Notes: generated by a model from the letters alone, not told the origin. A DNA stretch of 64,000 nucleotides from an uncultured archaeon (GCA_964342815.1 CAYFHS010000002.1:184790-248789); one strand, 5' to 3'; counted from the first letter of the stretch, positions 26,707 through 53,721 are shown. A program made the numbers and translations.

Positions 26707-26998
26707 TTGGCCACGACCTTGTATAACGGACAGTAAAATTAACCAGTATATATCGCTGTTATGCCCAAAATAAGTTTTGGTCCAGGTAATTCCCGTAAAT
26801 AATATGAATGTTAATCCGATTTTTTTCAGTTGTGCGGGGCAATAACACAACTTATACATAGTTAATCCACACTCGGCACGACTAAGTACATACCGTGGGT
26901 GAAGTTGCTTCAATGCCCGATGGGTATTCCTACCAAAACGTTCTTCAGTGCTGAATGATAGCCATTATTGGAATTAATTTACACAGGAAGTTGGAAAT

Positions 26999-35425: not shown

Positions 35426-37372
35426 ATGTATTCCAAAAGAGCTGTTACCCTGGCATTTACCTTGGTCCTCCTCTCATCATATTGTATCATCGGTTTTGAT
35501 CTTACTCAATCAGAGAAAAGGGAAGCGCGTCTATCCACTAGCGTGATAGAGGGGGAAAATGATCCATACATCAGAACCAGATTCGCAGGCGGGAATGGTA
35601 CTGGGGAAAATCCGTATCAGATATCGAATGTATCGCAATTGCAGGACATGAATCTCGATCTGTCTGCGAATTATACGTTGGTTAATGATATTGATGCATC
35701 CGAGACGAGGGAGTGGAATAATGGGAAAGGATTTACACCTATAGCGAATGACACAAATTCGACTAATAATTCTTTTGATGGAACATCATTTGCCGGAAGC
35801 TTAGATGGTAAAGGATACCACATAACTGATTTATATATTAATAGGTCAACAGAGATGTTCGTTGGTTTATTTGGTCAAACCATTAAGATAGGGTTAATCA
35901 GTAATATCACATTGATAGATATCCGCTTAAATGGTAAAGATAATGTCGGAGGAATTGTTGGAAAAAACTATGGATTGGTGTTAAATTGCTCTGTAACAGG
36001 AAATGTGACTGGCATTTCTGATGTAGGTGGGCTTGTTGGGATTAACTGTGATACTATCCAGAACTCCTCTGCAACAGGCAATGTAGATGGCAATCGGGTC
36101 GTAGGTGGACTTGTAGGGGGTAACTCAGCCATGATACAGAATTGCTCCGCCACAGGCAGTGTGAAAGGAGTAGAATTTACTGGTGGATTGGTAGGATGGA
36201 ACTATAATGGAATAATAAAGAATTGCTCCGCGACAGGAGTTGTGAAGGGATCTTATATCGTAGGTGGATTAGTAGGATTGAACGACAACACAGTTGAGAA
36301 CTGCTATGCAACAGGAGATGTAACTGGAAATAAATCTGTCGGGGGCCTAGTAGGAGAGAATCCCGACCTAGTTAAGAACAGCTACGCAACAGGAGATGTC
36401 TCTGGAAATACTTCTGTCGGTGGATTGGTGGGATCAAGCCGAGGAAATGTGATCTTCCCTATTGGATTTGGAAGAATAGTGAACTCCTTTGCAACAGGAA
36501 ATGTGACTGGAAAAGCTTCGGTCGGCGGATTGATGGGAAGCAATTCAGACAAAGTACAAAACTGCACGGCAACAGGGAATGTAGATGGCAATCGGTATGT
36601 AGGCGGACTTGTTGGAAGTAATTGTGCCATTATACTGAATGGTTTTGCAACAGGAAATGTGATTGGAGTTGGTTTTACTGGTGGACTTGTGGGATCTAAC
36701 AGTGACCCTGGAAGTATCATGAACAGCCATTCAACAGGCATTGTGAGTGGAGCAAATAATACTGGAAGACTGGTTGGATATAATTCGGGCATTGTTGAGA
36801 ATGATACATTGCCCGCTTTAAAATTCGGTTCTAGTATCGAAGTATCTACAATAGATCAAAACCTTCATCGAGAAGAATTAAAACCAGACCCAAATTGGGG
36901 TAGTAATTATCGAGTCCTGCTTGGCCATAGGTATACCATTACATTTTCGATTGAAAATACGGGTAAAGTTGATGCCTACAATATTACAGTGAACCTAAAA
37001 ATGGTCTATTCCTCAGGTAATTCAGATTTAATAAGAATGGATTTCGGAGATAACTTAAGCCTCATTGAGATCAAGGCCGAAAGCAACTTAACATTGGACT
37101 TTGATTGGTCACCTCATCGATATGGTGAGTATTACATGATGCTATTGACCATTGACCCAAATGACGAAATACAGGAGGTTGACAAGGACAACAATAAATT
37201 AGAGTTTATGTGGTTTAGGACCGAAGAGAAGCCAGGGACAACTCATGAAGATGTTGATTGGTCTTCAATCTTGGGACCCAACATTTCATTCTGGTCAGTT
37301 TTTCTTCTCGTGTTATGTTCATTATTGATATTTTTCATATTTATTTGGATTAAGAAAAAAGCCAAACTATAA
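35426..37372 (+). CDS. GLUG-repeat surface protein with a CARDB-like domain and a C-terminal TM anchor
   Basis: Signal peptide; FAGGNGTGENPYQI cap; about a dozen (V/T)GGLVG.N...(I/V).N..ATG.V.G repeats; IDPNDEIQEVDKDNN CARDB motif; terminal TM + KKK. AT-rich. Confidence 0.88.
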   Translation: MYSKRAVTLAFTLVLLSSYCIIGFDLTQSEKREARLSTSVIEGENDPYIRTRFAGGNGTGENPYQISNVSQLQDMNLDLSANYTLVNDIDASETREWNNGKGFTPIANDTNSTNNSFDGTSFAGSLDGKGYHITDLYINRSTEMFVGLFGQTIKIGLISNITLIDIRLNGKDNVGGIVGKNYGLVLNCSVTGNVTGISDVGGLVGINCDTIQNSSATGNVDGNRVVGGLVGGNSAMIQNCSATGSVKGVEFTGGLVGWNYNGIIKNCSATGVVKGSYIVGGLVGLNDNTVENCYATGDVTGNKSVGGLVGENPDLVKNSYATGDVSGNTSVGGLVGSSRGNVIFPIGFGRIVNSFATGNVTGKASVGGLMGSNSDKVQNCTATGNVDGNRYVGGLVGSNCAIILNGFATGNVIGVGFTGGLVGSNSDPGSIMNSHSTGIVSGANNTGRLVGYNSGIVENDTLPALKFGSSIEVSTIDQNLHREELKPDPNWGSNYRVLLGHRYTITFSIENTGKVDAYNITVNLKMVYSSGNSDLIRMDFGDNLSLIEIKAESNLTLDFDWSPHRYGEYYMMLLTIDPNDEIQEVDKDNNKLEFMWFRTEEKPGTTHEDVDWSSILGPNISFWSVFLLVLCSLLIFFIFIWIKKKAKL

Positions 37373-38325: not shown

Positions 38326-39417
38326 TCATTCGTTATTATAGCTATAAACCAAATCTGAATCCGGCGACTCTACTCCACGGCTCCTGATGGTGATGGTATC
38401 CTCATTATTTATGGTACCTGCAACCTTGGCGGCGATACCGCTTGAAGCTGCCTTCTCCAATACCTTTTCGGGTTCATTGCTGATCAAAAGAATTCCCTGA
38501 CCCATGTTCCACGTGCGGTAAGCCTCCATATCGGATACGTTTCCCATTTCCTGAATGCTTCCCATGACGTCGGGACAGTCGAAAAGATCGGTTAACAGCG
38601 CTCCTTTTCCCGTCCTCCTCAGCAGGCGGGACAGCTTACCCGGAACCCCGCCTCCCGTCACGTGGACGATACCGTTGATATTCACCTTTGCTTTATCACC
38701 GTACCCGCCGATCATCTTTAATATCGCACTGCTGTATATTGTAGATGGATACATGATCCGGGACGTAAAAACCTCTCCCGCTTCCAGATGCCAATCCGGA
38801 CCGTACTGTTCTCTCATGATATTTCTTACAAGGCTCAAGCCGTTTGATCGAAAACCTTTCTCCTGCAGCGCCACTACTGCATCCCCGCTTTTGATATCCA
38901 TTCCGCTTATCAGTTTTTCTTTCTCCCGCACCCACAGAACGAAGGCTCCCCAGTTGTAGTTGAAAGGGCCGTAACCCCCTATCCTCCCTCCCAGCTCCGC
39001 CATTTCACCGTTGATAACAGCCACGTTTGCTGTCTTGGCGGCCTTAATCAGACCGCCGGCCAGCTGTTTTACTGATTTTATTCCGTCCTGTAAAGACGCC
39101 GCATCGAGGATATTTCCAACAAGAAGAGGCTCGGCACCGTCCCGAACCGCGTCGTCGCATACCATGGCAAGCAGATCGAAGGCCATGGTGGAGTGGTCGC
39201 CGAGACGCTCGGCGATCTCGATCTTGGTTCCAACTCCATCGGTGTTCATTCCCATAACTGTTCCCGCACTTAAGCCGCCAACCGAGATGTATCGGATACC
39301 GGAAAAATCATCATTTGGAACCATGATCTCGCCAAGCCTTCCCTCGCGGTTCTTCCACGTCTCCCTGCAGGCGCGGTACATTATTTTCGAGGCAGTATCG
39401 CCCAGATCAATATCCAC
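38326..39417 (-). CDS. purM: Phosphoribosylformylglycinamidine cyclo-ligase (AIR synthetase)
   Basis: TDGVGTK, DLLAMVCDD, NGEMAEL, GFRSNGLSLVR, HVTGGG and TWNMGQG motifs. Confidence 0.93.
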   Translation of the reverse strand: MDIDLGDTASKIMYRACRETWKNREGRLGEIMVPNDDFSGIRYISVGGLSAGTVMGMNTDGVGTKIEIAERLGDHSTMAFDLLAMVCDDAVRDGAEPLLVGNILDAASLQDGIKSVKQLAGGLIKAAKTANVAVINGEMAELGGRIGGYGPFNYNWGAFVLWVREKEKLISGMDIKSGDAVVALQEKGFRSNGLSLVRNIMREQYGPDWHLEAGEVFTSRIMYPSTIYSSAILKMIGGYGDKAKVNINGIVHVTGGGVPGKLSRLLRRTGKGALLTDLFDCPDVMGSIQEMGNVSDMEAYRTWNMGQGILLISNEPEKVLEKAASSGIAAKVAGTINNEDTITIRSRGVESPDSDLVYSYNNE

Positions 39418-39456: not shown

Positions 39457-40899
39457 TCAGCACCTCCTCGAGCAGAGCCGGTCATTCTCTATCTCACTTA
39501 ACATTCCGTCCGAGACGGGCGTGGGATAATCTCCCGTGAAACAGCCCGTGCAGAAATTATTTCTAAACGATTTCGCATCGTTGACGGCCTCCACCATACC
39601 CTCCATCGGCAGATAGATCACCGCGTCCGCTCCTATGAATTTTTCAATTTCATCCATGTTACGGTTGCCGGCCAGGAATTCCCCTCTCGTGGACATGTCT
39701 ATACCGTAGACGCAGGGATGTTTGAGCGGAGGACTGCAGGACGCAAAAAATACCTTTTCGGCGCCGCTTTCCCGGGCTATCCTCACTATCTCCCGGCTGG
39801 TGTTTCCCCTGACGATGGAGTCATCCACCATGAGTACGTTTTTTCCGTTGAATTCCATTCTTATGGCGTTGAGCTTACGGCGGACGGACTTTTGCCTCTC
39901 ATTATCCGAAGGCATGATGAACGTTCTTCCTATGTATCGGTTCTTTACAAGCCCCTCTCTGTAGGGAATATCGCAAACTCTAGCGATGGCGATGGCGGCG
40001 GGACGCGCCGAATCCGGAACCGGAATAACCACGTCTATGTCAAGATCACTCAACGAGGGGAGGAGGGCCTTGCCAAGCCGTATCCTCGTCTCATACACGC
40101 TGATACCGTCAATGAATGAATCGGGACGCGCGAAATAGATATACTCGAATATACACGGATACGGCTCCCGCTCGATCAATCTCCTTTTATGCACATTTCC
40201 CTCTAGATCTATGAAAACGGCGCCGCCCGGGGGAATATCTTCTTTACTGCGGTAACCCAACATGTCAAGCGGAGCGCTCTCGGAAGCAACGGCGTAGCTT
40301 CCCGTTGGTTGATGTCTGCCCATTATAAGCGGTCTTATTCCGTAAGGATCACGAAAAGAAAGCAAACCTTTCCCTGCAATGATGGCCAATACGGAATATC
40401 CCCCGGCCACCCTTGTAAAAACATCCTTCACCGCGCCAAATATATTTTCCACGTCCGTGCCCCGTAGCTTCCCAAGAGCATCTGCGAAAACGTTGAGTAT
40501 CGCCTCGACGTCGCAGGTGGAATTCAGCCTGCGCTGGCCTTTCTCCATCAACTCATGCTTGAGCTCCGGGTAATTTGTAACCTGCCCGTTATGGGCCATC
40601 ACTATTCCGAACGGGTGGTTCACCATGAAAGGCTGGGCATCCTCGGGAGTTGAGTCCCCGTATGTGGGATAGCGCACATGCGCCAGCCCCACGTTTCCCT
40701 TCAATCTCGAAAGGTGCTTCTCATCGAATACATCCCTTACGAGTCCGTATCCCTTCTTCATCGAAAAGGAAATTCCGTCGAAGGTTGCCGCCCCAGCCGC
40801 ATCCTGCCCCCGATGCTGGATGGCAAGCATTCCTTCGTATAGATTTACGAAAACGTCGTCAACCCCGATTATTCCAATAATTCCGCACATAATCATCAC
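39457..40899 (-). CDS. purF: Amidophosphoribosyltransferase
   Basis: MCGIIG (Ntn Cys), QHRGQDAAG, HVRYPT, CIFEYIYFARPDS and VDDSIVRGNTS motifs. Confidence 0.98.
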   Translation of the reverse strand: MMIMCGIIGIIGVDDVFVNLYEGMLAIQHRGQDAAGAATFDGISFSMKKGYGLVRDVFDEKHLSRLKGNVGLAHVRYPTYGDSTPEDAQPFMVNHPFGIVMAHNGQVTNYPELKHELMEKGQRRLNSTCDVEAILNVFADALGKLRGTDVENIFGAVKDVFTRVAGGYSVLAIIAGKGLLSFRDPYGIRPLIMGRHQPTGSYAVASESAPLDMLGYRSKEDIPPGGAVFIDLEGNVHKRRLIEREPYPCIFEYIYFARPDSFIDGISVYETRIRLGKALLPSLSDLDIDVVIPVPDSARPAAIAIARVCDIPYREGLVKNRYIGRTFIMPSDNERQKSVRRKLNAIRMEFNGKNVLMVDDSIVRGNTSREIVRIARESGAEKVFFASCSPPLKHPCVYGIDMSTRGEFLAGNRNMDEIEKFIGADAVIYLPMEGMVEAVNDAKSFRNNFCTGCFTGDYPTPVSDGMLSEIENDRLCSRRC

Positions 40900-40905
40900 T
40901 TTTAT

Positions 40906-42237
40906 TTAATGCTTGAAACTTCTCTGGCCAGTAAATATCATGACAGCGTCGTGCTCGTTGCAGGCTACGACCGATTCATAATCCCTGTTCGATCCGCCGG
41001 GCTGTATCACAGCGCTGATTCCCTCATTAAGACCCACGTCGACTCCATCCCGGAACGGGAAAAATGCGTCGGAGACCATTACGGCTCCCTTGAGGCTGCC
41101 ATGCTGCTGGGCAACTTCGTCGTTTATGATCTCCAGCATTGCTCTCGTACGCCCTTTTTCGGGCTCATCCGTTGCTTTTCGGTTCTCCTGCAGCAGAATA
41201 TTGTAGGCCATTCCATATCTCTCGAAACAAATTCTATCCTTTAGCTTGGTGTATGCCTTGTCACGGGCTATGGCGGCTACGCCAACCCGGTCCTGCTCGC
41301 CGGTCCCGATACCCACGGTAGCTTCATTCTTTACATAAATGACCGAATTTGAGGTAATTCCGGATTCCACGAGCCAGCCGAACAGCATGTCCCGGTATTC
41401 TTCCCCTGTTGGCCGCCTTCCCATGGAGACACTTTTCCCAGTTTCCGTAAGTTTCCCATCCTTTATCATACGCTCGGGAATATCATGTGGCACGACCCCC
41501 GTGCTCTTCAGGTCGTCAACCGATCGTATTCTCGGCAGGAAAGACGTCTGGACTATGACGCCTCCGTCGCAGAGGGATTTGATCTCAGGAAAAACTGCTC
41601 TCTGCCACTCGTGAAGCCTCTCGATATTCGTGATTCTCAATATCCGCAGGTCCTTTTTTCTCCGTAATATACTAAGTGCGCCGCTCTGGTACGCAGGAGC
41701 AACCACCACCTCGGAGTAATTTTTCACGATCAGTTCAGCGGTGGCCTTGTCGCAGGGTCGGTTAAGAGCTATGGCACCTCCGAACGCCGCCACCCGATCG
41801 GCCATGTTCGCTTCGTAATAGGCTCCTGCAAGTGTTGGTCGTGTTGCCACGCCGCAGGGGTTGTTATGTTTCATGATGACCACAGTTGGTTTGTTCGGGA
41901 AATATTTCAATATGTTCAGAGCGCCGTCGACGTCAGTCAGGTTGATCTTTCCGGGATGTTTTCCGGACTGCAAAAGCTCCATGTCGCAGACCAGGCCCAT
42001 ATTGGGTTTGATGAACTCAACTCCGCCAAGGATCAAATTGCCATCCACCGGCCTGTACAATGCCGAAGGCTGTCCGGGATTCTCCCCGTAACGCAGCCCC
42101 TTCTCTTTTCCATCGATATCCCACAGAACCTTTTGATAATGAATGGTCATATCACCAAAGGTGATTTCCATCGTTGCCGGAAAAATATCGTTTTCCATTG
42201 CCCTGTACATTCTTCTCATATCCACCATTTCAATCAC
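40906..42237 (-). CDS. purH: AICAR transformylase (PurH family) lacking the N-terminal MGS-like IMP-cyclohydrolase domain
   Basis: LRYGENPGQ, KHNNPCG, AFGG, SNSV, GIGTGEQDRV, SDAFFPFRDG, IQPGGS and TGQRSFKH motifs; no IMPCH (GGRVKTLHP-type) motif. Confidence 0.9.
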   Translation of the reverse strand: MIEMVDMRRMYRAMENDIFPATMEITFGDMTIHYQKVLWDIDGKEKGLRYGENPGQPSALYRPVDGNLILGGVEFIKPNMGLVCDMELLQSGKHPGKINLTDVDGALNILKYFPNKPTVVIMKHNNPCGVATRPTLAGAYYEANMADRVAAFGGAIALNRPCDKATAELIVKNYSEVVVAPAYQSGALSILRRKKDLRILRITNIERLHEWQRAVFPEIKSLCDGGVIVQTSFLPRIRSVDDLKSTGVVPHDIPERMIKDGKLTETGKSVSMGRRPTGEEYRDMLFGWLVESGITSNSVIYVKNEATVGIGTGEQDRVGVAAIARDKAYTKLKDRICFERYGMAYNILLQENRKATDEPEKGRTRAMLEIINDEVAQQHGSLKGAVMVSDAFFPFRDGVDVGLNEGISAVIQPGGSNRDYESVVACNEHDAVMIFTGQRSFKH

Positions 42238-43265
42238 CTACCTCCGCAGGAATCCTCTTCGGTAATCCCCACCGTTTGGTGGGGTGGAGAAGAGGAAGCA
42301 GATTCCTGCGTTTTCGAGGATGAAACCCACAGATCATCTGTGGGTGATTCATCGCACCTGTTTATGATATAATGATCTATTTTTCCCTCATTTAGGAAAT
42401 ACCGACCATGCCCACTTTGTTCCGCAGAATCAGAGATACTGCTGCACCTTCGATTTCCCTTGGAAATCTGCTGGTCCAGTCGATTTTTTTCGTCAATCGC
42501 GAGAACAGTACCCCCCTCTTTTTTTGGGCTGCTTTTTCCAAAAAAGTAGTTTTGGGCCGCTTTTTTTTCTAAAAAAAGTGGTTTTTCACCATCAATGAAA
42601 AACGCAGCGAGAGACACCCTGAAATCATTTCCATCAACCGGAGCAAGAGCTTTGTAGACGCCAAGGGCGGCATCTCGGACATTTTTGAAGGGAAGTTCAC
42701 AAATCGGCGGTTCGCCTTCGAACGACGGGAGCGGATTTACATTATCTCCCGAATAGGTGGCGATCATTCGCCCGAAACCCGGGCGCATGGAAAATTCGAA
42801 ATTGTATTTTTCTCTGTAATCCTCCCCGCCCCGTTTTAAAATACCCAGGGCAAATTTGTTGGACTGAGGAGTAATAAAACCGCTTATTCTCGGTGTATAA
42901 TGGGGCGGGTCCGGCTCATAGCTCCACTGATCCAAACCTTTATCCAGCACTTCAAGCGGGCCCATTCCATCTTCGTATTTCTCCATGAGGGAAAGCGTAT
43001 GTTTTCCGTTAGAGACACCGATACCTCTTTTTATCGAAACTGCCGGGTAAATAAGAAGATCGGGATCACCTTTTCTCAATTCCTCTTCATCAGTGGGTTT
43101 CACCAGTAATTCGTTGTCACTGAATTCGAACTTTCTTGCCTGGCTCGCAGGAGATCGGCCCGTTATCGCATATATGACGACGGTGCGCGTATCCGATGCG
43201 TTCCTACCAACAATAATAATTCGGCCAGGGTATGTCATTTTTTCAATTTCTCTTAAGCTCGTCAT
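42234..43265 (-). CDS. IMP cyclohydrolase-like protein (PurO-like Ntn fold) carrying in-frame insertions near its 3' end
   Basis: YPGRIIIVG, ITGRSPASQAR, LLIYPAV, SNGKHT, YEPDPPHYTPRISG and NPLPSFEGEP motifs. The expected terminal VSL..F.D...G......IN(K/R) is split by ~64 extra residues and followed by ~36 more. Confidence 0.85.
   Translation of the reverse strand: MTSLREIEKMTYPGRIIIVGRNASDTRTVVIYAITGRSPASQARKFEFSDNELLVKPTDEEELRKGDPDLLIYPAVSIKRGIGVSNGKHTLSLMEKYEDGMGPLEVLDKGLDQWSYEPDPPHYTPRISGFITPQSNKFALGILKRGGEDYREKYNFEFSMRPGFGRMIATYSGDNVNPLPSFEGEPPICELPFKNVRDAALGVYKALAPVDGNDFRVSLAAFFIDGEKPLFLEKKAAQNYFFGKSSPKKEGGTVLAIDEKNRLDQQISKGNRRCSSISDSAEQSGHGRYFLNEGKIDHYIINRCDESPTDDLWVSSSKTQESASSSPPHQTVGITEEDSCGGR
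42245..42585. repeat. Cluster of at least five inverted repeats embedded in frame in the IMP-cyclohydrolase-like gene
   Basis: Hairpins at 42245-42310, 42319-42353 and 42452-42468, plus a tandem pair TTTTGGG-[stem-T5/8-loop-A6/7-stem] at 42522-42582. Confidence 0.8.
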
Positions 43266-44059
43266 ATCACCTCACTGAATTCGATGCCTTCGGGAATTAA
43301 ATTTCCGTCCAGATATATCCGGTCCTCCTCATCCCGGGTATATCTTCCTTCTGAGATCAATTCAATGGTTTTCGGAAAAATCTTCCAGTCACCTTCTTCT
43401 TTCAATCTTTCCTGAGTTTCCAACGCAACACTTTCAAACATTCCTAGCTCGTCACTGCCAACCAACAGATCTCTACCAATACCATCCGGCAGCACGGGCG
43501 CAACAGCATCGGACACCATGAGAATGGCGCCTCCATCCGGGATCTCCGTGACCAGATGAACAGTGCTGTGAACATATTTCTCACCGCTCAACAGGGCATT
43601 CATTACAGGTACATGTCCGATCCCGCCTGCGTATTTCCGCCCGCCGCTCCCATCCAGCGGCCGGAGGTCCGCCGGATGAACGTTCAAGGTCAGAAAATTC
43701 TTATGAATTTCCTCTGTTACGAACCAATTATAACCAGCCAGAGCAACAAGATCAATCTCATTATTACGGAATCCATCGGCAGCGAATCCATCAAACAGCA
43801 TTCGGGCGTCCTTCCCCTTTTTTCCACATTCCCGAAAGAATCTTTTTCGGTCGTTCACCATTGCGGGCAAGTCGTACTTTTTTCCAATTTTCTCGGTATT
43901 GCTCTCGGGATTTTCACTGAACAGCATACGCACTTCAAAGGATGGGATAGGGGCGGCTCTCGCATATTCTATTATCTTCACCGCATTGGTCCCGGAGCCG
44001 GACATCATTATTGCGACCCTCATAAGTCTTTCCCTTGGAGCGAACAGGGGGACATTCAT
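43262..44059 (-). CDS. purN: Phosphoribosylglycinamide formyltransferase (folate-dependent), divergent
   Basis: VAIMMSGSGTNA, DLVALAGY, LNVHPA (catalytic N/H) and STVHLVTEIPDGGAIL (catalytic D). Confidence 0.88.
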   Translation of the reverse strand: MNVPLFAPRERLMRVAIMMSGSGTNAVKIIEYARAAPIPSFEVRMLFSENPESNTEKIGKKYDLPAMVNDRKRFFRECGKKGKDARMLFDGFAADGFRNNEIDLVALAGYNWFVTEEIHKNFLTLNVHPADLRPLDGSGGRKYAGGIGHVPVMNALLSGEKYVHSTVHLVTEIPDGGAILMVSDAVAPVLPDGIGRDLLVGSDELGMFESVALETQERLKEEGDWKIFPKTIELISEGRYTRDEEDRIYLDGNLIPEGIEFSEVI

Positions 44060-44072
44060 TATTACACCGGTT

Positions 44073-45443
44073 CTATTGAAATCCGCCTATGGTTTTTCGG
44101 TATCTCATACAGTTATTATCGTTATTGCGGTGATCCAGGAACGCCAACTTTCCAATATTTCTATAAGCTTTTTCCACGGCTTCCTCAAATACCGTACTGC
44201 TGCCAACAACGTGAAGTACACGCCCGCCCTTGGTAACAAGCCCTCTTTCAGGGTGCTCGTCCACACCGGAATAGAATACTGCGATCCCCCGCTCGATATT
44301 ATCCAATCCTTCGATCTTGTAACCCTCTCCGTACCTTCCCGGATATGGTTTGAACCATCCTCCGCTGGGGGACCTTGCCTTTCCGGCCATTGCAATTACG
44401 TCGACATAGAAATTCTTGTTCCATTTTTGTTTTACCCTATCGAGATTCCCTTCCCAGGTCGCCATGGCTATCTCGAAAAGGTCGGTCTGGAGTTTTCGGA
44501 GGATCACCTGGGCTTCCGGGTCGCCGTGCCGGACATTAATCTCGAAAACGCAGAGACCGCCGTGCTCATCAATGTTAAGCCCGAAATAGAGTACTCCCTT
44601 GTAATTCCACCCCAGTTTATTGTAAACCGCATTTACCGTGGGACTAACGATCTCTCTTATTATCCTGTTGGACAATCCCGGGGTAGCCAGATCATGGGGG
44701 CAGCAGCACCCGGTACCTCCCGTGTTCAAGTTTCCACCCAAGATCCTAATTGTGTCCGTATCAGTGGGGTCGCAGGCAGGTTTGTAATCCCGTGCGAACA
44801 TTCGTAACGGTAAAAAATGCTCGCCGTCCAGATAAGCAAAGAAAGATATCTCATTCCCGTATTTTCGTTCCTCAATGACGCAGATATCTCCGGATTTTCC
44901 GAATTTTTTCTTCACTATTAAAGTATCTACAGCGGCTTCGGCATCACTGACGTCATCGCATACGATGGCGCCCTTGCCTGCAGCCAGCCCATTCGCCTTG
45001 ACAACGACCTGATATCCTACATTACGGACATATCTTTTGGCGGCTTCAGCATCATGGAAAGCCCTGTATTCGGCCATGGGAACACCGGCAGCCGCCAGCA
45101 AGGTCTTGGTAAATACCCTGTCGTTTTCTATCTGAACATATTTTGCCCTCGGTCCCACAGTGGGCAGACCCGCCCTGTTCAGAACATCTACGAGCCCTTC
45201 GTCAAGTGGATTCTCACTGCCCACATCCACAAGCCCCACACCGTTCTCCAGGCAGAATTCCCTGACCGCCTTGAAATCCCTTATTGGAACCTGCTCTATA
45301 TATCCTCGCTGACCCTTGGTGGTATATTTCACACCCGGATTGCCTGGAGCGAAATATACCTTCTCCACATGTTTGCTCTCGATATATTTGTCGCAAAGAC
45401 AATGATCGCGTCCTCCGGAACCGTAAACCAGTACCTTTTCCAT
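44073..45443 (-). CDS. purD: Phosphoribosylamine--glycine ligase
   Basis: VLVYGSGGRDH, APGNPG, VKANGLAAGKG, NTGGTG, GVLYFGL, EINVRHGDPEAQ and TKGGRVL motifs. Confidence 0.96.
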   Translation of the reverse strand: MEKVLVYGSGGRDHCLCDKYIESKHVEKVYFAPGNPGVKYTTKGQRGYIEQVPIRDFKAVREFCLENGVGLVDVGSENPLDEGLVDVLNRAGLPTVGPRAKYVQIENDRVFTKTLLAAAGVPMAEYRAFHDAEAAKRYVRNVGYQVVVKANGLAAGKGAIVCDDVSDAEAAVDTLIVKKKFGKSGDICVIEERKYGNEISFFAYLDGEHFLPLRMFARDYKPACDPTDTDTIRILGGNLNTGGTGCCCPHDLATPGLSNRIIREIVSPTVNAVYNKLGWNYKGVLYFGLNIDEHGGLCVFEINVRHGDPEAQVILRKLQTDLFEIAMATWEGNLDRVKQKWNKNFYVDVIAMAGKARSPSGGWFKPYPGRYGEGYKIEGLDNIERGIAVFYSGVDEHPERGLVTKGGRVLHVVGSSTVFEEAVEKAYRNIGKLAFLDHRNNDNNCMRYRKTIGGFQ

Positions 45444-45444
45444 T

Positions 45445-46878
45445 TCAACTACCCCCTATATCAAGAATTCTTTTGGCGAACAATACGGCATTCCCCGGAT
45501 CGATGATCACAGCTAATGGCAATTTTGAGGGCATTCTGAGGCTTGAATGAACGTCGGCCATGTAAGCTTCATTATCACTGTAAGGATTGCATGATATCAC
45601 CGGGAAACGAGAATTACCAGCCACCACCGGACCAAGACCGTTGCTTCTACCGGCGGATGTTATTATGACCACCGGCTCAATGCTGTTGTCAAGTTTACGA
45701 ATATATTCCAATACTTTGTGGGTCTCCTTGTGTGCCGAGGCATAGAAGGGACCGACATACGGGATCTTGTTATCTTCCAATGACTTCGCGAATCTCTCAC
45801 AAAAACGCTGGTCCCGGGGGCTTGCAGCCATGAGCTGGACGCAGCCGCCGTATATGTACCCGCCGGCTCGAAGATTTTCCATGATCCTCTTTTTGGGGTT
45901 CTTTGCCAGGCTGAAATCGAATTTCCTGCCCACGAACCTCTCGTATAGTCGTATATATTTGAGTGAGGTCTCGATAACCTGGCGGTCATTCAGATCCGGC
46001 AGTTCATTTACCTTACCCCCACCTTTCTCAAGCAGGGCATCTCTAACAAACTGTTTGCTGAGCTCCTCGATCTTCAATTCACTCTCTTCTCTCAATAGAT
46101 GGGTGACACTTTCAAAGTTACCTGTTTTCATTTTGGCCCGGATCGCTGAGAATTTCCGTTTCCATTCTTCCCTCTCACAGAATCTGGAAGAGTCGGGAGT
46201 GTTCACCTCGTCTATCAGGTGCAGTTCTCCTACTTCATCGACGCCGAACTCGTATTTCGTATCTATCAGGATAAGCCCAAGCTCTTCAGCCTCTTTTGAG
46301 AACCGATTGAAGAGGGAAATCGATTTTTCCATTACTCTGCGGGCCATATCCTCTCCAAGCAACCGCACGGTGTCTTCGAAGCTAATGGGCAGATCATGAC
46401 CTTCTTCCGCCTTGGTGGTGGGTGTGTACATGGCTTCTTCCAGTGACTGGTATCTGATAAGATCCTCCCCGAGCTTAATTCCGCAGAATTCTCTTTCGCC
46501 CTTCTCGAAGGAATCGGCCATGCTTCCCCAGAGATATTTTCTTACTACGCACTCCACCCCTATGTTCTTCATTTTTTTCTGAACCATTATGTTCGCATCG
46601 GGTACGTCTATCACAGCAGTAGGGATAATATTGCGGGCTATCTTCATGTTATGCTCGCTTATTCCCGTTAGTACGGCTCCCTTGAAAGGTATGCATCTGG
46701 ACAGAATGAAATCGAAAGCTGAAATACGGTCAGTGGTCACAAGAACTGCCCTGTCCTCTTGAAAATAAATATCCCGTACCTTTCCCTTCTTTAGTTCCCC
46801 AAGTTCAGGGAGAAAGGCCGACTCTAGCACGTTTTCGAGATTCTCTTCTATCATCGTCTCATATTCAGTCCTTGTCAT
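45445..46878 (-). CDS. purC-purE: Fused SAICAR synthetase (PurC) + class II-type AIR carboxylase (PurE), PAICS-like architecture
   Basis: N-domain GKVRDIY, TDRISAFD, IPFKG, PTTKA, DTKYEFG, DEVNTPDSSRF and SKQFVRD; C-domain SAH and SAGRSNGLGPVVAGNSRFPVISC...DVHSSLRMPS. Confidence 0.92.
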   Translation of the reverse strand: MTRTEYETMIEENLENVLESAFLPELGELKKGKVRDIYFQEDRAVLVTTDRISAFDFILSRCIPFKGAVLTGISEHNMKIARNIIPTAVIDVPDANIMVQKKMKNIGVECVVRKYLWGSMADSFEKGEREFCGIKLGEDLIRYQSLEEAMYTPTTKAEEGHDLPISFEDTVRLLGEDMARRVMEKSISLFNRFSKEAEELGLILIDTKYEFGVDEVGELHLIDEVNTPDSSRFCEREEWKRKFSAIRAKMKTGNFESVTHLLREESELKIEELSKQFVRDALLEKGGGKVNELPDLNDRQVIETSLKYIRLYERFVGRKFDFSLAKNPKKRIMENLRAGGYIYGGCVQLMAASPRDQRFCERFAKSLEDNKIPYVGPFYASAHKETHKVLEYIRKLDNSIEPVVIITSAGRSNGLGPVVAGNSRFPVISCNPYSDNEAYMADVHSSLRMPSKLPLAVIIDPGNAVLFAKRILDIGGS

Positions 46879-47700
46879 CTATATCACCAGATTTTTTCTT
46901 GCATATTTTACAGCATTCCGAAAGATACCAACACCCATACCTTCCTCGGGCAATTTTTCCCGCTTTCTTTCATCTCTCAAGCGGGTCCAGAGCGGATGAT
47001 TCGTATAATGCAGATAACCCTCCGGATGAGGCATTAATCCGAAAATACGTCCAGAGGGATCGCACAGAGCAGCTATATCGTTGGGAGAGCCGTTGGGGTT
47101 GAAGGGATATTTCCCTTCCGCATTCGCGAGGTTCGGTCCTGCATATCGGGCAGCTACCAGATTCGTGTCTTCAAGCTCTCTTAAAGTTTCTTTCCCCGTG
47201 AAGAACATCCCTTCTCCATGACGGACCGGAAGCTCAATATGGTCGATCCCTCGGGTCCAGATGCACGGCGAAGCGTGGTTGATGTTCAAAGAAACCCACC
47301 TATCTTCGAATCGGCCGCGGGAATTGCGCATAAGAGTCACGCTTTGACTCGAATAATCCCCTTGGAGGCCGGGCAGCAAGCCAGATTTTACAAGCACCTG
47401 GAAACCGTTGCATATACCTATGATCAGCTTGCCATCCTTGACGAATTTTTGTACCTCGGCGTTCAGTTTAGTCCTTAATTTTAGTGCAAGCGCTTTTCCG
47501 GCTCCTAGAAAATCACCGTGGGCGAAACCGCCGGGAATTGACAATATATGATAATCGTCGAGACACTTTGTCCTGTCGATAAGCTCGTTTATATGCACCC
47601 TACGGGCGAGCGCTCCGGCAAGTTTGAAGGCGTACTCGGTTTCCAGCTCGCAGTTGATGCCAAAACCGGTCATAATAAGCGCTTTAGGCTTCATTTTCAA
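46879..47700 (-). CDS. purQ: FGAM synthase glutaminase subunit
   Basis: GFGINCELET, PGGFAHGD, GICNGFQVL, HGEG and GLMPHPE motifs. Confidence 0.97.
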   Translation of the reverse strand: MKMKPKALIMTGFGINCELETEYAFKLAGALARRVHINELIDRTKCLDDYHILSIPGGFAHGDFLGAGKALALKLRTKLNAEVQKFVKDGKLIIGICNGFQVLVKSGLLPGLQGDYSSQSVTLMRNSRGRFEDRWVSLNINHASPCIWTRGIDHIELPVRHGEGMFFTGKETLRELEDTNLVAARYAGPNLANAEGKYPFNPNGSPNDIAALCDPSGRIFGLMPHPEGYLHYTNHPLWTRLRDERKREKLPEEGMGVGIFRNAVKYARKNLVI

Positions 47701-50672
47701 TACCTCATTGGGGATTGCCAGGCCTCTTTTAGAACTGTTATATCGCTTCGAATTATTACATTCCCATCTATGCCGATGACCTTGAACTCCGAGGATTCTA
47801 ATACTTTCCCGATACAGGAATATCGAGCATCAGTTAATAATTCTTCAAATCTCCCGCGCAGGTGGGGAGCCACGGTGACCACTAACCTTGAGGCTGATTC
47901 CGAGAAAAGCACTCCATCATTTCTGCTAACTCCCGTGGTGGGTACACTTCGCAGATCCACCTCCATTCCAAGATCCCCGGCGAAGGCAGTTTGGGCCAAC
48001 GCCACTCCCAGGCCGCCTTTGTAGCACCCGTGCATGGAAGCCACCAGTCCCTCCTCAACTGCTTTGTTCAGACCAGTGTAGATGATCTTTGCCTTCTCGC
48101 CATCAACTTTTGGTACGTTATTACCCACCGCTCCCATCATGTCGAAATATTCCGACGCGCCCAATTCATCCCTTGTGATACCGACCACATAAACGATATC
48201 CCCCGCTTTCTTGACATCCATGGTCACGCATTTTCTAACATCCTCGATCTTGCCAACAGCAAGATATTGGACCATTGGAAGCCCCGATATCTTTTTACTT
48301 CTCCCTTCCCGATCTTTGATGAATCCGTCTATGGACATGCTGTCCTTACCGCTTATACAGGGGGTTCCGAAGGATACCGTATAATCGTACAAAGCCTGAT
48401 TCGCCCTCACCAGTTGAGCCAAGAGATCGGCATCGTTCAACGGAAGCGGCCAGTTGAAGTTATCGTTCAATATCATTCTATCGAGGGAACCCCCCACCGC
48501 GATTATCCGTCGTATCGCCTCGTCAATAGCCATGGCGCTCATGTGATAGGCGGATATCTTGCTGTAGTGAGGATTCAAGCCCGATGAGATTGCCAGTCCC
48601 TCCATGGAATCCAGAACGGGGCGTATGACGACAGAATCGCTCTCCACATCGCTCCTAGCGCCCACCAACGGTTTTATCACGGACCCACCCTGAACTTCGT
48701 GATCGAACTGCCTTATTATGTACTCCCTGCTGCATATGTTCGGTCGAGAAAGCATTTTTATGAGTACCCGGGTGTATTTTTTGTCCTCACCGAGCTTTGG
48801 TACTGGAAAAATATTTCTTTTCTCCTCGCGTGCGTTCAGCTCCATCTGAGGAACTCCTTCATGAAGAAACTCCATATCGAGGTAAACCACCGATTCTCCG
48901 CCGTACTTTACGTGGAAAGTCCCGCTGTCAACGAATTCTCCCAGTACGGTCACCTCCACGTCGTGCTTTCTTGCAAGTCTCTGAAAGAGAGATATTTTTT
49001 TGGGGGGAACCGCAAATGTCATTCTCTCCTGGGACTCGCTAACCAGTATTTCCCACGGGTTCAGATTTGGGTATTTCAGCGGTGCACGATCCAGATGGAG
49101 TACGCAGCCGCCCTTCTTGCCGCAGAAGCCGGCAGTTTCCCCCACCGAGGAGTTAAGTCCCCCGGCTCCGTTGTCCTGAACGAAGTTGTAGAGACCTTCA
49201 TCCCTGGCCTCGAGAAGCATATCCATCAACTTCTTCTGCATGTATGGATCGCCTATCTGAACGTGGCCGGCCGGCGTTGTGTCGTCAAACGGCCTCGATG
49301 AGGCAGTAGCCCCGTGTATGCCGTCTACTCCTATCCGACCGCCGGCCATTACGATCAGGTCTCCGGGCTCAACTCTCTTTTCCCAGCCGGGTTTCCCGTT
49401 TACCCGTGAAGGTATCATTCCCCCGGCAGCAACCAGAATTATACATTTACCCAGGTAGCTCTCGTCAAAAAAAACTCTCCCGTATGGTGTGGGAACGCCG
49501 TGCTTGTTGCCGCCGTCCTCGACCCCTTTTCGCACCCTTTCAAGAAGAACTCTCGGGTGCTGCGGAGGGCTTAGCCTGCCGTGAAAATCCTGCGGACCCA
49601 CCATGAATCCATAATAGCCGAAAACTATCTTTGCACCCATTCCGGTTCCCATGGGGTCTCGGTAAACACCCACGATCCCGGTGATTGCACCGCCATAGCC
49701 TTCCATGTTGGACGGACTGTTGTGGGTCTCGCATTTCAGGCAAAAAAGCCAGTCCTTGTTGAATTCCATTACACCTGCATTGTCCCAGAAGACGGATTTG
49801 ATCCATGGCCGCGTTTCCATGATTTTTTTGGTAGCTCCTTTGATGTAGGTATCGAATAGACTGTCGATGTCGCATCGCTCACCGTTTGCTCCTCTGAAGT
49901 GGATAATGGCGTTGAACTGCTTGTGTTTGCAGTGCTCGCTCCATGTCTGCGCCAAGGATTCCATCTCCGCATCAGTAGGTATTTTCTGGAGACCCACCCC
50001 CACCCGGCGCCGTGCAACACCTTCCCGATCATAGTATTCCACAATTGCCTGAAGCTCCTGCCTGCTCAAACCCCATTGGCTTGAATCGCTCAAGTTAAGA
50101 AGTTCTTCGGGCTCCGCAGCAAGATCGATATACTCAATGACGGGGGGATTGTTAATGGAAGCTCTCGCCAATGTATGGGGGACTCCCACATCGGACCAAT
50201 GCGAATAATTGCTGATATACCATCTCTGGACCAGCGGATTGGCAAGCAGGCGTGATGCAATCTTTTCTTGTTCAAAATCCGCCCCTTCTACTCCTTTTAT
50301 CCGGTACTGGATCGAACTGGATATTTTATCCTTGAGACCCAACGTAATACCTATATCACGAAAAGCCTCTTGGGCCACTCTTGCGGCATTATCGGTCAAA
50401 CCGGGTTTCCACCCGACTTCGATGAGCACGTCGAAGCCCTCTTTTGAGGGCAATTTCTCATAGCTTGACATCTCGGAGATGGGGTCTGTAAAAATAAGTT
50501 CCTTCAGTTTCGTCAATTTTTCGGGACTAAGATCCGCATCAATGGTGAATACTGAAACGACATTGACCGATTCCAGAGGAATGTCCAGCTCGTTTCGTAT
50601 CCTTTTTAAGATGCTGGCTCCCTCAGCGTTTATGAGGTCCGGTCTTGTGGAAATCTCCAGTCTGAATGCTAT
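47697..50672 (-). CDS. purL: FGAM synthase synthetase subunit with fused N-terminal tandem PurS-like domains; probable ATA start at 50672
   Basis: QTWSEHCKHK, DNAGV, ETHNSPS, DGIHGATASS, DNGAGGL, SESQERM, QFDHEVQG and GKDSM motifs. The frame stays open 52 codons upstream of the ORF-track TTG (50516) with PurS-like sequence, but contains no ATG, GTG or TTG. Confidence 0.93.
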   Translation of the reverse strand: MAFRLEISTRPDLINAEGASILKRIRNELDIPLESVNVVSVFTIDADLSPEKLTKLKELIFTDPISEMSSYEKLPSKEGFDVLIEVGWKPGLTDNAARVAQEAFRDIGITLGLKDKISSSIQYRIKGVEGADFEQEKIASRLLANPLVQRWYISNYSHWSDVGVPHTLARASINNPPVIEYIDLAAEPEELLNLSDSSQWGLSRQELQAIVEYYDREGVARRRVGVGLQKIPTDAEMESLAQTWSEHCKHKQFNAIIHFRGANGERCDIDSLFDTYIKGATKKIMETRPWIKSVFWDNAGVMEFNKDWLFCLKCETHNSPSNMEGYGGAITGIVGVYRDPMGTGMGAKIVFGYYGFMVGPQDFHGRLSPPQHPRVLLERVRKGVEDGGNKHGVPTPYGRVFFDESYLGKCIILVAAGGMIPSRVNGKPGWEKRVEPGDLIVMAGGRIGVDGIHGATASSRPFDDTTPAGHVQIGDPYMQKKLMDMLLEARDEGLYNFVQDNGAGGLNSSVGETAGFCGKKGGCVLHLDRAPLKYPNLNPWEILVSESQERMTFAVPPKKISLFQRLARKHDVEVTVLGEFVDSGTFHVKYGGESVVYLDMEFLHEGVPQMELNAREEKRNIFPVPKLGEDKKYTRVLIKMLSRPNICSREYIIRQFDHEVQGGSVIKPLVGARSDVESDSVVIRPVLDSMEGLAISSGLNPHYSKISAYHMSAMAIDEAIRRIIAVGGSLDRMILNDNFNWPLPLNDADLLAQLVRANQALYDYTVSFGTPCISGKDSMSIDGFIKDREGRSKKISGLPMVQYLAVGKIEDVRKCVTMDVKKAGDIVYVVGITRDELGASEYFDMMGAVGNNVPKVDGEKAKIIYTGLNKAVEEGLVASMHGCYKGGLGVALAQTAFAGDLGMEVDLRSVPTTGVSRNDGVLFSESASRLVVTVAPHLRGRFEELLTDARYSCIGKVLESSEFKVIGIDGNVIIRSDITVLKEAWQSPMRY

Positions 50673-50706: not shown

Positions 50707-52527
50707 TCATTCCCATTCTATTGTTCCGGGTGGTTTACTGGTGACATCGATACAGAAACCGGATACAGCATCAAATCGGGATATTTCTTCATCAAGTTCT
50801 GAAATTAATTCTATTGGAACCAGAGCGGGAGCCGCTGTCATAGCTCGTTTGGAATGGACCGGACGAAGAATGACCAACTCGCGGCCCTTGCCGTCCATCT
50901 CCAGGGGAACCAGAACAGTGGGGCACTGCCATATCGATGAATAACAGCCATATTTAACAAGGGACTCCATTACCAGATGATCGATCTCTCTCAAAAGCCT
51001 CAAACGCTCTCGGGTTACAGTGGCCGGGAGGGGGACAGCCTTTGAGTGGGTCTGACCAGTCAAATTCCAAATGCATCTATTTATTCCGTTAAGCTCCGAG
51101 AGGATGACCGTGGCGGCTTTCACCACTTGATCCAGGGACTCATCGCCTTGAAGAAGGACGGGGTGCTCGTAAGAGCGAAGGTCCCCTTTCACTCCCACGG
51201 ATCTGATTGGCAGAATGAGCGAATTTAGGCCAAAACTCCCTGCAATTTCGGCCACCTTCTCGACGACTCCTTTCCGAATGTTTGTGTTGGGCGACCCTGT
51301 TGAGCAGAGAAGGCGTATCCCAAGTCCCGGACCGGGGAACGGATGGCGCCACAGTACATTTTTCTCAATACCCAATCTCTCACCCAGTTCCCTGACCTCG
51401 ACCTTGTAAAGTTCACTCAAAGGCTCCAATATTTTTCCCCGTTCCATCATTTCGTCGATTATCGGTACCCGGTTATGGTGGGTCTTTATGGTATCCGCCC
51501 GTTTGGTACCCCCGGTTTCAATGGTGTCGGGGTAGATGGTCCCCTGAGCCAGGATATGATCCTTGAGACCTAGCGCTTCGGCTTCTTGCTGGAATACCTC
51601 CAAAAAGGTATTTCCAATGGCAATACGTTTCTCTTCGGGCTCCACCAGACCCTCCAGAGCATTGAGAAAAAACGCTCCCGCATCAATAAAATGAAGGTTT
51701 TCATCCAATCCGAGATATTCAAACATTTCCAATACCGACCTGCTCTCGTTCTTTCTCATTAGACCGTTGTCGATATGAAGAAGATGGAATTGCCCGGTGG
51801 CCAGGGTCATTCCCAGCAGTTTGGCTGCCACGGTGGAGTCCACGCCACCCGAGACCAGAAGGAAGACGGACTTTTCCCCTGCTTTCTCACGGATATCTTC
51901 TATCTTTCTCTCCAGGTAGTCCTCCATGGTCCACGTGGGAGAACAACCGCAGATGCTAAAAACAAAATTGGAGAGCATTTTCTCACCATGAGGCGTATCG
52001 TCAACTTCCGGGTGGAACTGGAACCCGTAACGCATCAGACGTTTCGAGGCTATTGCGCTATAACGATGTTTTCTCCGGTCACTTCCACCAACAGTATACC
52101 CGATTTCCTCAAAATCGGGTCCAAGCTTAATCACCGAGTCGTGATGGCTCATCCAAACAGGTTCCGTTCGGTCCAATCCCTCGAACAAAGGATGTGATGA
52201 GCTAATGTGAAGGTCCGCTCGACCCCACTCTCGTTCTCCCTTGGCCACTCTTCCCCCGTAATGCTTGGCGATCTCCTGGTGACCGAAACAAAAACCGAGT
52301 ATTGGAATGTCCAGATCGAATATTTTTCGATCATAATGTGATTCCTCTCCCTTTGAGGAAAGGGCCGGGCTTCCGGAGATTATAATTCCTCTATAGGCGC
52401 GGAAGATATCAAGAGGATCCTCGGGTTGAAGTATCTCGGCCAATACGTGGAGCCGACGTATCTTTGTTGCGATAAGATGGGCATACTGCCCGCCGAAATC
52501 CACTACCGCGATAGCGTCGTGTTTCAT
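50707..52527 (-). CDS. guaA: GMP synthase (glutamine-hydrolysing), fused GATase + synthase
   Basis: VDFGGQYAHLI, GFCFGHQ, FQFHPEV, SGGVDST, QGTIYPDTIE, KTHHN, HPFPGPGLGIR and SKPPGTIEWE motifs. Confidence 0.98.
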   Translation of the reverse strand: MKHDAIAVVDFGGQYAHLIATKIRRLHVLAEILQPEDPLDIFRAYRGIIISGSPALSSKGEESHYDRKIFDLDIPILGFCFGHQEIAKHYGGRVAKGEREWGRADLHISSSHPLFEGLDRTEPVWMSHHDSVIKLGPDFEEIGYTVGGSDRRKHRYSAIASKRLMRYGFQFHPEVDDTPHGEKMLSNFVFSICGCSPTWTMEDYLERKIEDIREKAGEKSVFLLVSGGVDSTVAAKLLGMTLATGQFHLLHIDNGLMRKNESRSVLEMFEYLGLDENLHFIDAGAFFLNALEGLVEPEEKRIAIGNTFLEVFQQEAEALGLKDHILAQGTIYPDTIETGGTKRADTIKTHHNRVPIIDEMMERGKILEPLSELYKVEVRELGERLGIEKNVLWRHPFPGPGLGIRLLCSTGSPNTNIRKGVVEKVAEIAGSFGLNSLILPIRSVGVKGDLRSYEHPVLLQGDESLDQVVKAATVILSELNGINRCIWNLTGQTHSKAVPLPATVTRERLRLLREIDHLVMESLVKYGCYSSIWQCPTVLVPLEMDGKGRELVILRPVHSKRAMTAAPALVPIELISELDEEISRFDAVSGFCIDVTSKPPGTIEWE

Positions 52528-52557: not shown

Positions 52558-53721
52558 TTACTTTCCCATTCCGACCCTTTGAGTTTTCTGAAATATCTTA
52601 CCTTCCGAACCTATCTGGGGGGCAATCAGAAGCTCTGTAAGCTGCATCTGCTCAATGTTGATCGCCCCCACCGAACCCATGCTCGTTTTCAAGGCTCCAA
52701 CCAGATTGTGGGTGCCGTCATCCAAACGCGCCGGTCCATACAAAATCTCTTCCAGGGACCCCGTTGTGCCTACCCGTATCCTTGTTCCCCGGGGGAGATT
52801 TTTATGGGGTGTTGCCATCCCCCAGTGATATCCCTTTCCAGGTGCTTCCCTGGCTCTTGCGAAGGTCGATCCAAGCATCACGGCATCCGCACCTGCGGCG
52901 AAGGCCTTGCAGATGTCGCCACCTGTGCTCATTCCACCGTCCGTAATTATGGAAACATATTTCCCGGTTCGTTTGAAGTAATTATCCCTGGCTGCTGCAC
53001 AATCTATTGTTGCAGTCACCTGGGGAACCCCAATTCCAAGCACACCTCGTGTAGTACAAGACGCTCCGGGACCCACACCGACCAGCAGAGCTGCACACCC
53101 CGTTTCCATAAGTTCCAGGGCTGAATGATAGGTAACACAATTCCCGATAATCACCGGTATGTCCAATTCCCTGCACAGCTCACCCAGGTTGACCGGCTCG
53201 TACAGGGTGGAGATATGACGGGCAGTGGTCACCGTGGATTGGACAACGAGAACATCGGCTCCGGCCTCCTGGGCGATTTGTCCGTATCTCTTGGCTTTCT
53301 GGGGAATCGCTGAAACTGCCGTATAGGTCCCGTTTTTTTTCATCTCCCTCACCCGCTGGCCGATAAGGAAGTCTTTAATTGGTTCACGATAGACCTCTTG
53401 TATCTGATGGGTAACCGAGTCATTAGGTGCTTCGATTATTCTCATAAGTTCCGGGTATGGGTTCTCATATCGAGTGTATATACCCTCAAGATTTAGAACT
53501 CCAAGACCCCCCAATTTGCCAAAGGCACCGGCGAACTTCATGTCAACCACACCGTCCATAGCCGAGGCCAGGAATGGTATTTCCAGCATCAAACCATCGG
53601 CCAGCCGCCGAGTGATGTTCACTTCATCCGGATTGACGGTGACGGTCCCTGGAACCAGTGCCACTTCGTCAAATCCGTATGCTCGTCGCGCCTCGCGGTT
53701 TCTTCCTATGAATAAAGGCAT
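52558..53721 (-). CDS. guaB: IMP dehydrogenase-family protein, GuaB3 type (no CBS domains)
   Basis: [50 protein letters not shown] (catalytic Cys), DGGM and [16 protein letters not shown] motifs. Confidence 0.93.

Follow-up and report, generated by a model that had tools for sequence, protein, structure and literature searches.

Does an archaeal gene that carries phosphoribosylaminoimidazole-succinocarboxamide (SAICAR) synthetase and 5-aminoimidazole ribonucleotide (AIR) carboxylase in a single reading frame encode an enzyme of the kind that animals possess in PAICS, and do the two fusions share a source? We addressed this question for purCE, a gene in a 64,000-nucleotide stretch of DNA from an uncultured archaeon (GCA_964342815.1 CAYFHS010000002.1:184790-248789; hereafter the window), which the initial annotation had read as a CO2-dependent PurC-PurE fusion of animal-like architecture. 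Our analysis indicates that purCE most likely encodes a functional enzyme with two activities. The class II PurE domain at its C-terminus would convert AIR to 4-carboxy-AIR (CAIR) by direct addition of CO2, using neither PurK nor ATP, and the long-type PurC domain at its N-terminus would then join aspartate to CAIR at the expense of ATP, yielding SAICAR. The protein belongs to a large fusion clade found in DPANN archaea, Patescibacteria, other bacteria, alveolates and giant viruses. This clade is most likely separate in origin from animal PAICS, and the Thermoplasmatota genus most likely received purCE horizontally, accompanied by part or all of a bacterial-type pur operon. We consider this reading as a whole, with a bifunctional CO2-type enzyme, a fusion independent of PAICS and a horizontal gain together with the operon, to be likely.

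The interval originally proposed for the fusion is exact at both ends, and translation and Pfam place a single frame with PurC followed by PurE on its minus strand (Table 1). No internal stop occurs over the 477 codons; read on the plus strand, the interval is rich in stops. Pfam recognized SAICAR_synt at residues 29-240 (E = 9.8e-54) and AIRC at residues 347-473 (E = 3e-21); NCBIfam concurred on both domains, with all models scoring below their equivalog cut-offs. The two strings that had been quoted from the PurE domain, AGRSNGLGPVVAGNSRFPVISC and DVHSSLRMPS, were both recovered in the translation. Other assemblies (JGI, ENA and Logan) contain relatives of 476-477 amino acids with 55-70% identity to purCE, and the exact purCE protein is recorded on 5 contigs. 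Given these full-length relatives and identical records, it is unlikely that the fusion is a sequencing artefact hiding a stop codon, a concern raised when it was first described.

The N-terminal half of purCE is a PurC of the long type. In searches against the Protein Data Bank (PDB) it matched yeast Ade1 (1a48/1obg, E = 7e-38) and Mycobacterium abscessus PurC (3r9r, E = 7e-36), whereas short-type PurCs gave E-values of 1e-6 to 1e-11. The Ade1 and M. abscessus proteins (1A48, 2CNQ, 3R9R) were the best match of the N-terminal 330 residues in both sequence and fold, but they are monofunctional and lack the fused PurE as well as an insert of ~25 residues (241-270) that is present in purCE. The substrate and ATP motifs GKVRD, DRxSxFD, TPTTK, DTKYEFG and IDExxTPDSSR are all found in purCE and are invariant across 52 family members. 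An AlphaFold2 (AF2) model of the protein, based on an alignment of 52 sequences, had a predicted local distance difference test score (pLDDT) of 93.7 and a predicted template modelling score (pTM) of 0.90. When the domains of this model were compared to known structures with Foldseek, the PurC domain matched 2cnq with a template modelling (TM) score of 0.85 and a root mean square deviation (rmsd) of 2.1 Å, and the PurE domain matched Treponema denticola PurE (3rgg) with an rmsd of 1.4 Å over 130 columns.

The C-terminal domain bears the signature of class II PurE. When the last 141 residues of purCE were used as query against the PDB, the matches were led by PAICS from Bombyx (4ja0, E = 9e-21) and human (2h31, E = 6e-17) and by the class II PurE of T. 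denticola (3rg8, E = 5e-16), whereas all class I structures matched at 1e-3 or worse. Where class I PurE has a 70s loop of AGGAAHLPG and an SAHR motif, purCE has AGRSNGLGPV and SAHK; the latter aligns to S301-K304 of PAICS and is invariant or nearly so in the 52 family members. Among the 18 residues listed for the active-site model of the AIR carboxylase domain of human PAICS (AIRc; PMC9376930), 13 are identical in purCE (Ser274, Asp277, Ser301, Ala302, His303, Lys304 and Ala329-Leu335), with differences confined to the phosphate loop, where MGSTSD has become AASPRD, and to Val328, which has become Ser. The T. denticola enzyme (3RG8/3RGG) has the same fold and 36% identity and shares the SAHK, AGRSN and SSLRMPS motifs; it differs from purCE in standing alone, in its length of 159 residues with C-terminal helices, and in its AGRSNALSG loop. 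The PurEs found in relatives from the same taxonomic class as the host have SAHR, AGLSAALPG and a C-terminal helix, and purCE departs from them on all three counts. In a tree rooted on such class I-like PurEs, the purCE domain fell inside the class II ingroup and not with class I. Thus, E-values, motifs and tree position agree on the class II assignment made in the initial annotation, and by sequence and fold it is well supported. Enzyme activity and the use of CO2 are inferred.

The absence of purK, which had been taken as a further sign of class II chemistry, proved to be a weaker argument. No purK was found in the cluster or, with model TIGR01161, in the whole assembly of this genome (G000; 4.35 Mb, 88.9% complete), where the best match, PurD itself, reached 31 bits against a cut-off of 318. 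However, the class relatives with a class I-like PurE likewise lack purK, and its absence alone is therefore not diagnostic of class II in this lineage.

The PurE domain of purCE ends early, at the position of residue 392 out of 425 in PAICS and of residue 129 out of 159 in T. denticola PurE. A single nucleotide separates the purCE stop codon from the purD start, which leaves no room for C-terminal helices beyond this point. The same tail-less end, to within a few residues, was seen in 97 of 250 class II PurE domains that had near-complete coverage and were classified by their end point: 63 of these lie in PurC-PurE proteins, 24 in PurN-PurC-PurE proteins and 10 in stand-alone proteins. The truncation is a family trait.

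We then compared purCE to animal PAICS. The human (2H31/6YB8) and Bombyx mori (4JA0) proteins share with it the order of PurC before PurE, a class II PurE, the AGRSNGLGPV loop and SAHK, but the PurC of PAICS is of the short type whereas that of purCE is of the long type, and PAICS keeps the C-terminal PurE helices (~30 residues) that purCE lacks. Consistent with this, two true PAICS proteins from a search of representative sequences, which match human PAICS over its full length (E = 1e-154 and 3e-278), matched short PurCs at E-values of 1e-23 to 1e-33 and long PurCs only at 1e-3 to 3e-5. Furthermore, alignment of both domains of the full-length AF2 monomer to PAICS 6yb8_A gave an rmsd of 20.9 Å over 466 columns, and the mutual arrangement of the domains is thus predicted to differ. 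The animal-like architecture initially proposed for purCE accordingly holds for the domain order and fails for the type of PurC and the C-terminal helices; the modelled arrangement and the trees described below also speak against it, and purCE is probably not an enzyme of animal type.

Separate trees of the two domains, suggested with the initial annotation as a check on the origin of PAICS, both placed purCE away from PAICS. In the PurE tree (IQ-TREE; 81 rows, 132 columns, rooted on the class I-like PurEs of relatives), all tail-less domains formed one clade (support 98/91), with the subgroup that includes purCE (12 rows, 99/93) nested deep within it, and PAICS (10 rows, 99/87) fell into another clade (97/97) together with stand-alone PurEs that have the tail. 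In the PurC tree (quick search, 313 columns), PAICS was placed outside the long PurCs as a whole, on a branch of 2.15. The purCE subgroup was united at 99% support with a tailed group that has an AGGTDALSG loop and comprises alveolates, Patescibacteria, Woesearchaeota and a PurN-PurC-PurE protein; other Thermoplasmatota families have stand-alone long PurCs, and these fell elsewhere, apart from the PurC of purCE. Because the two trees agree in setting purCE apart from PAICS and the PurC subfamilies differ, the purCE-type fusion most likely arose independently of the animal one, and of the two origins first considered for PAICS, convergent fusion or shared source, both trees favour convergence. 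The shared AGRSNGLGP loop would then be either ancestral within class II or convergent.

The fusion turned out not to be rare. The survey of prokaryotes proposed together with the original description extended its range to DPANN archaea, Patescibacteria and other bacteria, and to alveolate protists and giant viruses. The 120 best full-length matches listed for purCE were all of PurC-PurE length with 42-70% identity, and nearly all carried both Pfam domains, a few of the lowest having the PurC domain only. Named among them were Woesearchaeota (Candidatus Woesearchaeota P0008, 52% identity), Patescibacteria (P0044), Perkinsus marinus (P0085, 43%), dinoflagellate transcripts and one PurN-PurC-PurE protein; NCBI names such fusions of long PurC and class II PurE 'AIR carboxylase family protein'. 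In the ESM Atlas, 15 clusters (Bacteroidota, Myxococcota and Nucleocytoviricota) combine the two domains, and an exhaustive search with the PurE domain returned 516 representative clusters at E <= 1e-3. In GTDB species genomes, where stand-alone long PurC genes dominate the matches listed, we found at least three single-frame full-length fusions (L006-L008; Woesearchaeota, Bipolaricaulota and unclassified bacterial metagenome-assembled genomes (MAGs)) and at least two loci with PurC and PurE in adjacent, separate frames (L009 and L011; a Bacteroidota MAG with 49% identity and an Anaerolineae MAG). A scan of metagenomes yielded one full-length relative with genomic context, two contigs of a sister species of the host, and short eukaryote-like contigs. 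The relative with context (L110) is 52% identical to purCE and lies on a 539-kb contig next to an inosine monophosphate (IMP) dehydrogenase gene, purA, a partial purH and a purB-like Lyase_1 gene, close to an archaeal-type Phe-tRNA synthetase; the purine context is thus conserved between the two loci and the gene order is not. With purCE, a widespread fusion family that is uncharacterised as far as we searched the literature gains a new member from the archaea.

Within this family, the tail-less PurE and the AGRSNGLGPV loop of purCE recur in the nearest subgroup (P0002-P0031). A tailed subgroup from alveolates, Patescibacteria and some Woesearchaeota (P0044, P0048, P0085, P0088, P0069) has instead the AGGTDALSG loop, which fits neither class cleanly, and a C-terminal helix. 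This subgroup sits on a branch of 1.22 in the PurE tree, and its PurC domains intermingle with those of the purCE subgroup, a pattern that suggests replacement of PurE or fast PurE evolution inside one fusion lineage. Frames of 449-485 amino acids in family f35 of the host's phylum (L106-L108) were considered as further fusions and rejected, as they consist of PurC with an upstream extension and hold no PurE; the stand-alone long PurC of f35 is preceded by 165-200 residues of open frame.

We also analyzed the genome in which purCE resides. The window encodes the archaeal termination factor aCPSF1/FttA (KH_TffA and beta-CASP domains; 28602-30524). Relatives of this factor that carry a taxonomic name share ~60% identity with it and come from Thermoplasmata, Methanomassiliicoccales and Thermoplasmatota MAGs; the same assembly holds a full archaeal 16S rRNA on contig C9. 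These two findings bear out the archaeal origin assumed from the start and identify the host, a marine-type archaeon, as a member of the Thermoplasmatota. Around purCE lies a tightly spaced operon in the order IMP dehydrogenase, guaA, purL, purQ, purCE, purD, purN, purO, purH, purF and purM, together with a deaminase; all 11 operon genes are open and full length in this genome, and with the exception of purB they cover every step to IMP other than those of purCE itself. A protein search of the whole assembly found no second PurC. The one other AIRC domain is C-terminal (E = 6e-11) in a 254-residue protein on contig C26 (L005:1135-1899), which by its architecture we take to be LarB-like; as a separate protein of this kind it was rejected as a second PurE, and it is followed by a frame of 354 residues with no Pfam match. 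purCE is thus the sole PurC and the sole purine-type PurE found in the assembly.

The taxonomic distribution of the fusion points to acquisition from outside the family. Among 401 genomes of the phylum, it was found only in G000 and in G001, a genome of the same genus; these are the first occurrences seen in Thermoplasmatota, and they are confined to one genus. Two other genera of the family (G002 and G003, 91-93% complete) yielded no PurC, PurE, PurD or PurM. The sensitivity of this search was adequate, because the same queries picked up PurD and PurM in a class relative at 38-39% identity; in the class relatives, a short PurC and a class I-like PurE are encoded separately. Moreover, the operon's PurD is 65-70% identical to PurDs named Deltaproteobacteria, Desulfobacteraceae, Desulfatiglandaceae and Fidelibacterota and 39% identical to that of the class relative, pointing to a bacterial origin for at least purD. 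Given a fusion limited to one genus, family genera without the pathway genes tested and a bacterial-like PurD, the genus ancestor most likely gained purCE by horizontal transfer, together with some or all of a pur operon of bacterial type. The GC content of the operon (0.47-0.52) is similar to that of the rest of the window and gives no sign of recent transfer, which argues that the acquisition was not a recent one. A class II-like PurE in the absence of PurK has been read as a horizontal acquisition in Archaeoglobus also (Brown et al. 2011, PMC3261824); that PurE resembles the one described here, by its description, in class and in the lack of PurK, and no fusion to PurC is reported for it in that paper.

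The operon that is intact in this genome is decaying in a sister species, where purL residue 634 is joined to purCE residue 227 at a junction that is 100% identical over 200 nt in three assemblies. The deletion removes the remainder of purL, the whole of purQ and the catalytic core of PurC. In addition, purO and purF each run over more than one frame, and a TAA stop interrupts purM.

Several observations weigh against the reading given at the outset and have to be set beside its rivals. No paper describing prokaryotic PurC-PurE fusions, and no biochemically characterised member of the clade, was found in the literature. The helices missing from purCE, ~30 residues, are present in every solved PurE, and their loss, combined with a phosphate loop of AASPRD in place of GSxSD, may mean a different oligomer state or activity. 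These same features are what could be expected if PurE were not a CO2-dependent carboxylase in vivo and acted as a scaffold, or as a mutase on non-enzymatically formed N5-CAIR, as proposed for PurK-less archaea with class I PurE; that the class relatives live without purK on a class I-like PurE, so that a missing purK proves nothing about class II chemistry, points the same way. Yet the class II signature and the catalytic His and Ser are conserved across a clade of >100 representative clusters, the histidine of the class I loop (AGGAAHLPG) is absent, and the class II match is stronger than the class I match by ~15 orders of magnitude in E-value, which makes a PurE of this sort very unlikely. 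Another challenge concerns the need for the gene at all. The broken operon of the sister species indicates that selection on it can lapse in this genus, and a search of the 88.9%-complete assembly turned up neither purB nor another member of the Lyase_1 family, leaving the pathway formally incomplete. Together with the two family genera that lack the pathway genes tested and the deletion across purL, purQ and purCE with damage to purO, purF and purM, this could mean that purCE is intact yet dispensable, in an organism that relies on purine salvage like its family relatives and carries an operon on its way out. We hold this to be highly improbable, as the operon is unbroken here throughout and the missing purB most simply lies in the unassembled 11% of the genome: a Lyase_1 gene is present in each of G001, G002 and G003, and the gap in G000 is thus probably one of assembly. 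(purA was found on its contig C43.)

As to origin, the separation from PAICS is clearer in the best trees than in a test of the alternative. Forcing the purCE subgroup into one clade with the PurE of PAICS cost 17.4 log-likelihood units, and the approximately unbiased (AU) test on this short alignment did not reject the joint clade (p = 0.174). A shared source, in which the PurE of the tail-less group and the AIRc domain of PAICS are specific relatives, PAICS being derived from the family or having been a donor to it, with later replacement of PurC, would also explain why AGRSNGLGP occurs in both when most other class II domains have AGRSNALSG, and why the best PDB match of the PurE domain is PAICS and not T. 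denticola PurE. It conflicts with the best PurE tree, in which the two lie in different clades (98/91 and 97/97), with PurC halves that belong to different subfamilies, PAICS standing on its long branch outside the long PurCs, and with the C-terminal helices, kept in PAICS and lost in the purCE group; we judge it unlikely. It is conceivable, and to our minds rather unlikely, that two more specific propositions hold jointly: that a tail-less PurE and a long PurC make up a structurally distinct bifunctional enzyme, assembled in another way than the octamers of PAICS and PurE and passing CAIR across another interface, and that the AGRSNGLGPV subgroup is the closest prokaryotic relative of the carboxylase domain of PAICS. 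For the preferred reading of purCE as a bifunctional enzyme of independent origin, oligomer state and channelling are likewise matters of inference.

The features of the locus are collected in Table 1. The PurL model begins at residue 178, and the N-terminal 150 residues match PurS weakly (PF02700, E = 0.002, below cut-off), so that a PurS-PurL fusion alongside a separate PurQ is possible in this operon. The final two steps (40906-43265) are divided between the PurO-like protein, which scores well under the NCBIfam cut-offs and carries a long C-terminal extension, and a PurH with the AICAR formyltransferase domain only. Elsewhere in the window, a GLUG/CARDB repeat protein of 648 residues is encoded upstream of the operon in window coordinates (35426-37372, plus strand), and two very large frames of 2662 and 1497 residues lie on the minus strand (18925-26913 and 10333-14826). 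Rfam gave no match in the window.

Table 1. Genes, domains and motifs of the purCE locus in window coordinates, and the deletion junction of the sister species in contig coordinates. FGAM, formylglycinamidine ribonucleotide; GMP, guanosine monophosphate; AICAR, 5-aminoimidazole-4-carboxamide ribonucleotide; aa, amino acids.
Feature	Position	Strand	Remarks
IMP dehydrogenase family gene	52558..53721	-	Head of cluster
guaA (GMP synthase)	50707..52527	-	Pfam
purL	47697..50516	-	939 aa; N-terminal extension of ~175 residues, weakly PurS-like
purQ (FGAM synthase glutaminase subunit)	46879..47700	-	Stop codon abuts purCE start codon
purCE	45445..46878	-	SAICAR synthetase fused to class II AIR carboxylase, 477 aa; ATG to TGA, stop codon 45445-45447
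PurC domain, long (yeast Ade1 / Mycobacterium) type	45889..46878	-	Residues 1 to ~330; helical insert of ~25 residues near 241-270
Class II PurE domain without C-terminal helices	45448..45846	-	Residues ~345-477; Pfam AIRC profile positions 2-128 of 148
AASPRD, equivalent of phosphate loop (PAICS MGSTSD)	45811..45828	-	Ser353 and Asp356 kept; Gly, Thr and second Ser replaced
SAHK loop with catalytic His383 (PAICS His303)	45727..45738	-	Residues S381-A382-H383-K384
AGRSNGLGPV loop, class II signature	45625..45654	-	Residues 409-418
purD	44073..45443	-	Start 1 nt past purCE stop; bacterial-type sequence
purN-like formyltransferase	43262..44059	-	Pfam, NCBIfam
PurO-like IMP cyclohydrolase	42234..43265	-	343 aa; Pfam, NCBIfam
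PurH, AICAR formyltransferase domain alone	40906..42237	-	Pfam, NCBIfam
purF	39457..40899	-	Pfam
purM	38326..39417	-	Pfam
Deletion junction, sister species	L109:4799-7437 (G001:C70); L111:4897-7535; L112:8109-10747		2.4-kb deletion

The domain order of PAICS has probably arisen more than once, and class II PurE is now seen in at least four fusion layouts besides PAICS: PurC-PurE with a tail, PurC-PurE without a tail, PurN-PurC-PurE and PurE-PurC. The prokaryotic forms are apparently uncharacterised, and the tail-less form poses the question of whether a PurE octamer is possible without the C-terminal helices. Existing knowledge of class II chemistry and of the origin of PAICS is unchanged by purCE, and the fusion family itself is already in the databases; what is new is local, namely its occurrence in this genus and the operon that carries it. 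Altogether, the locus documents an archaeal genus that most likely gained a purine operon of bacterial type, its family being otherwise without the pathway genes tested, and a sister species caught in the course of losing the operon thus gained.

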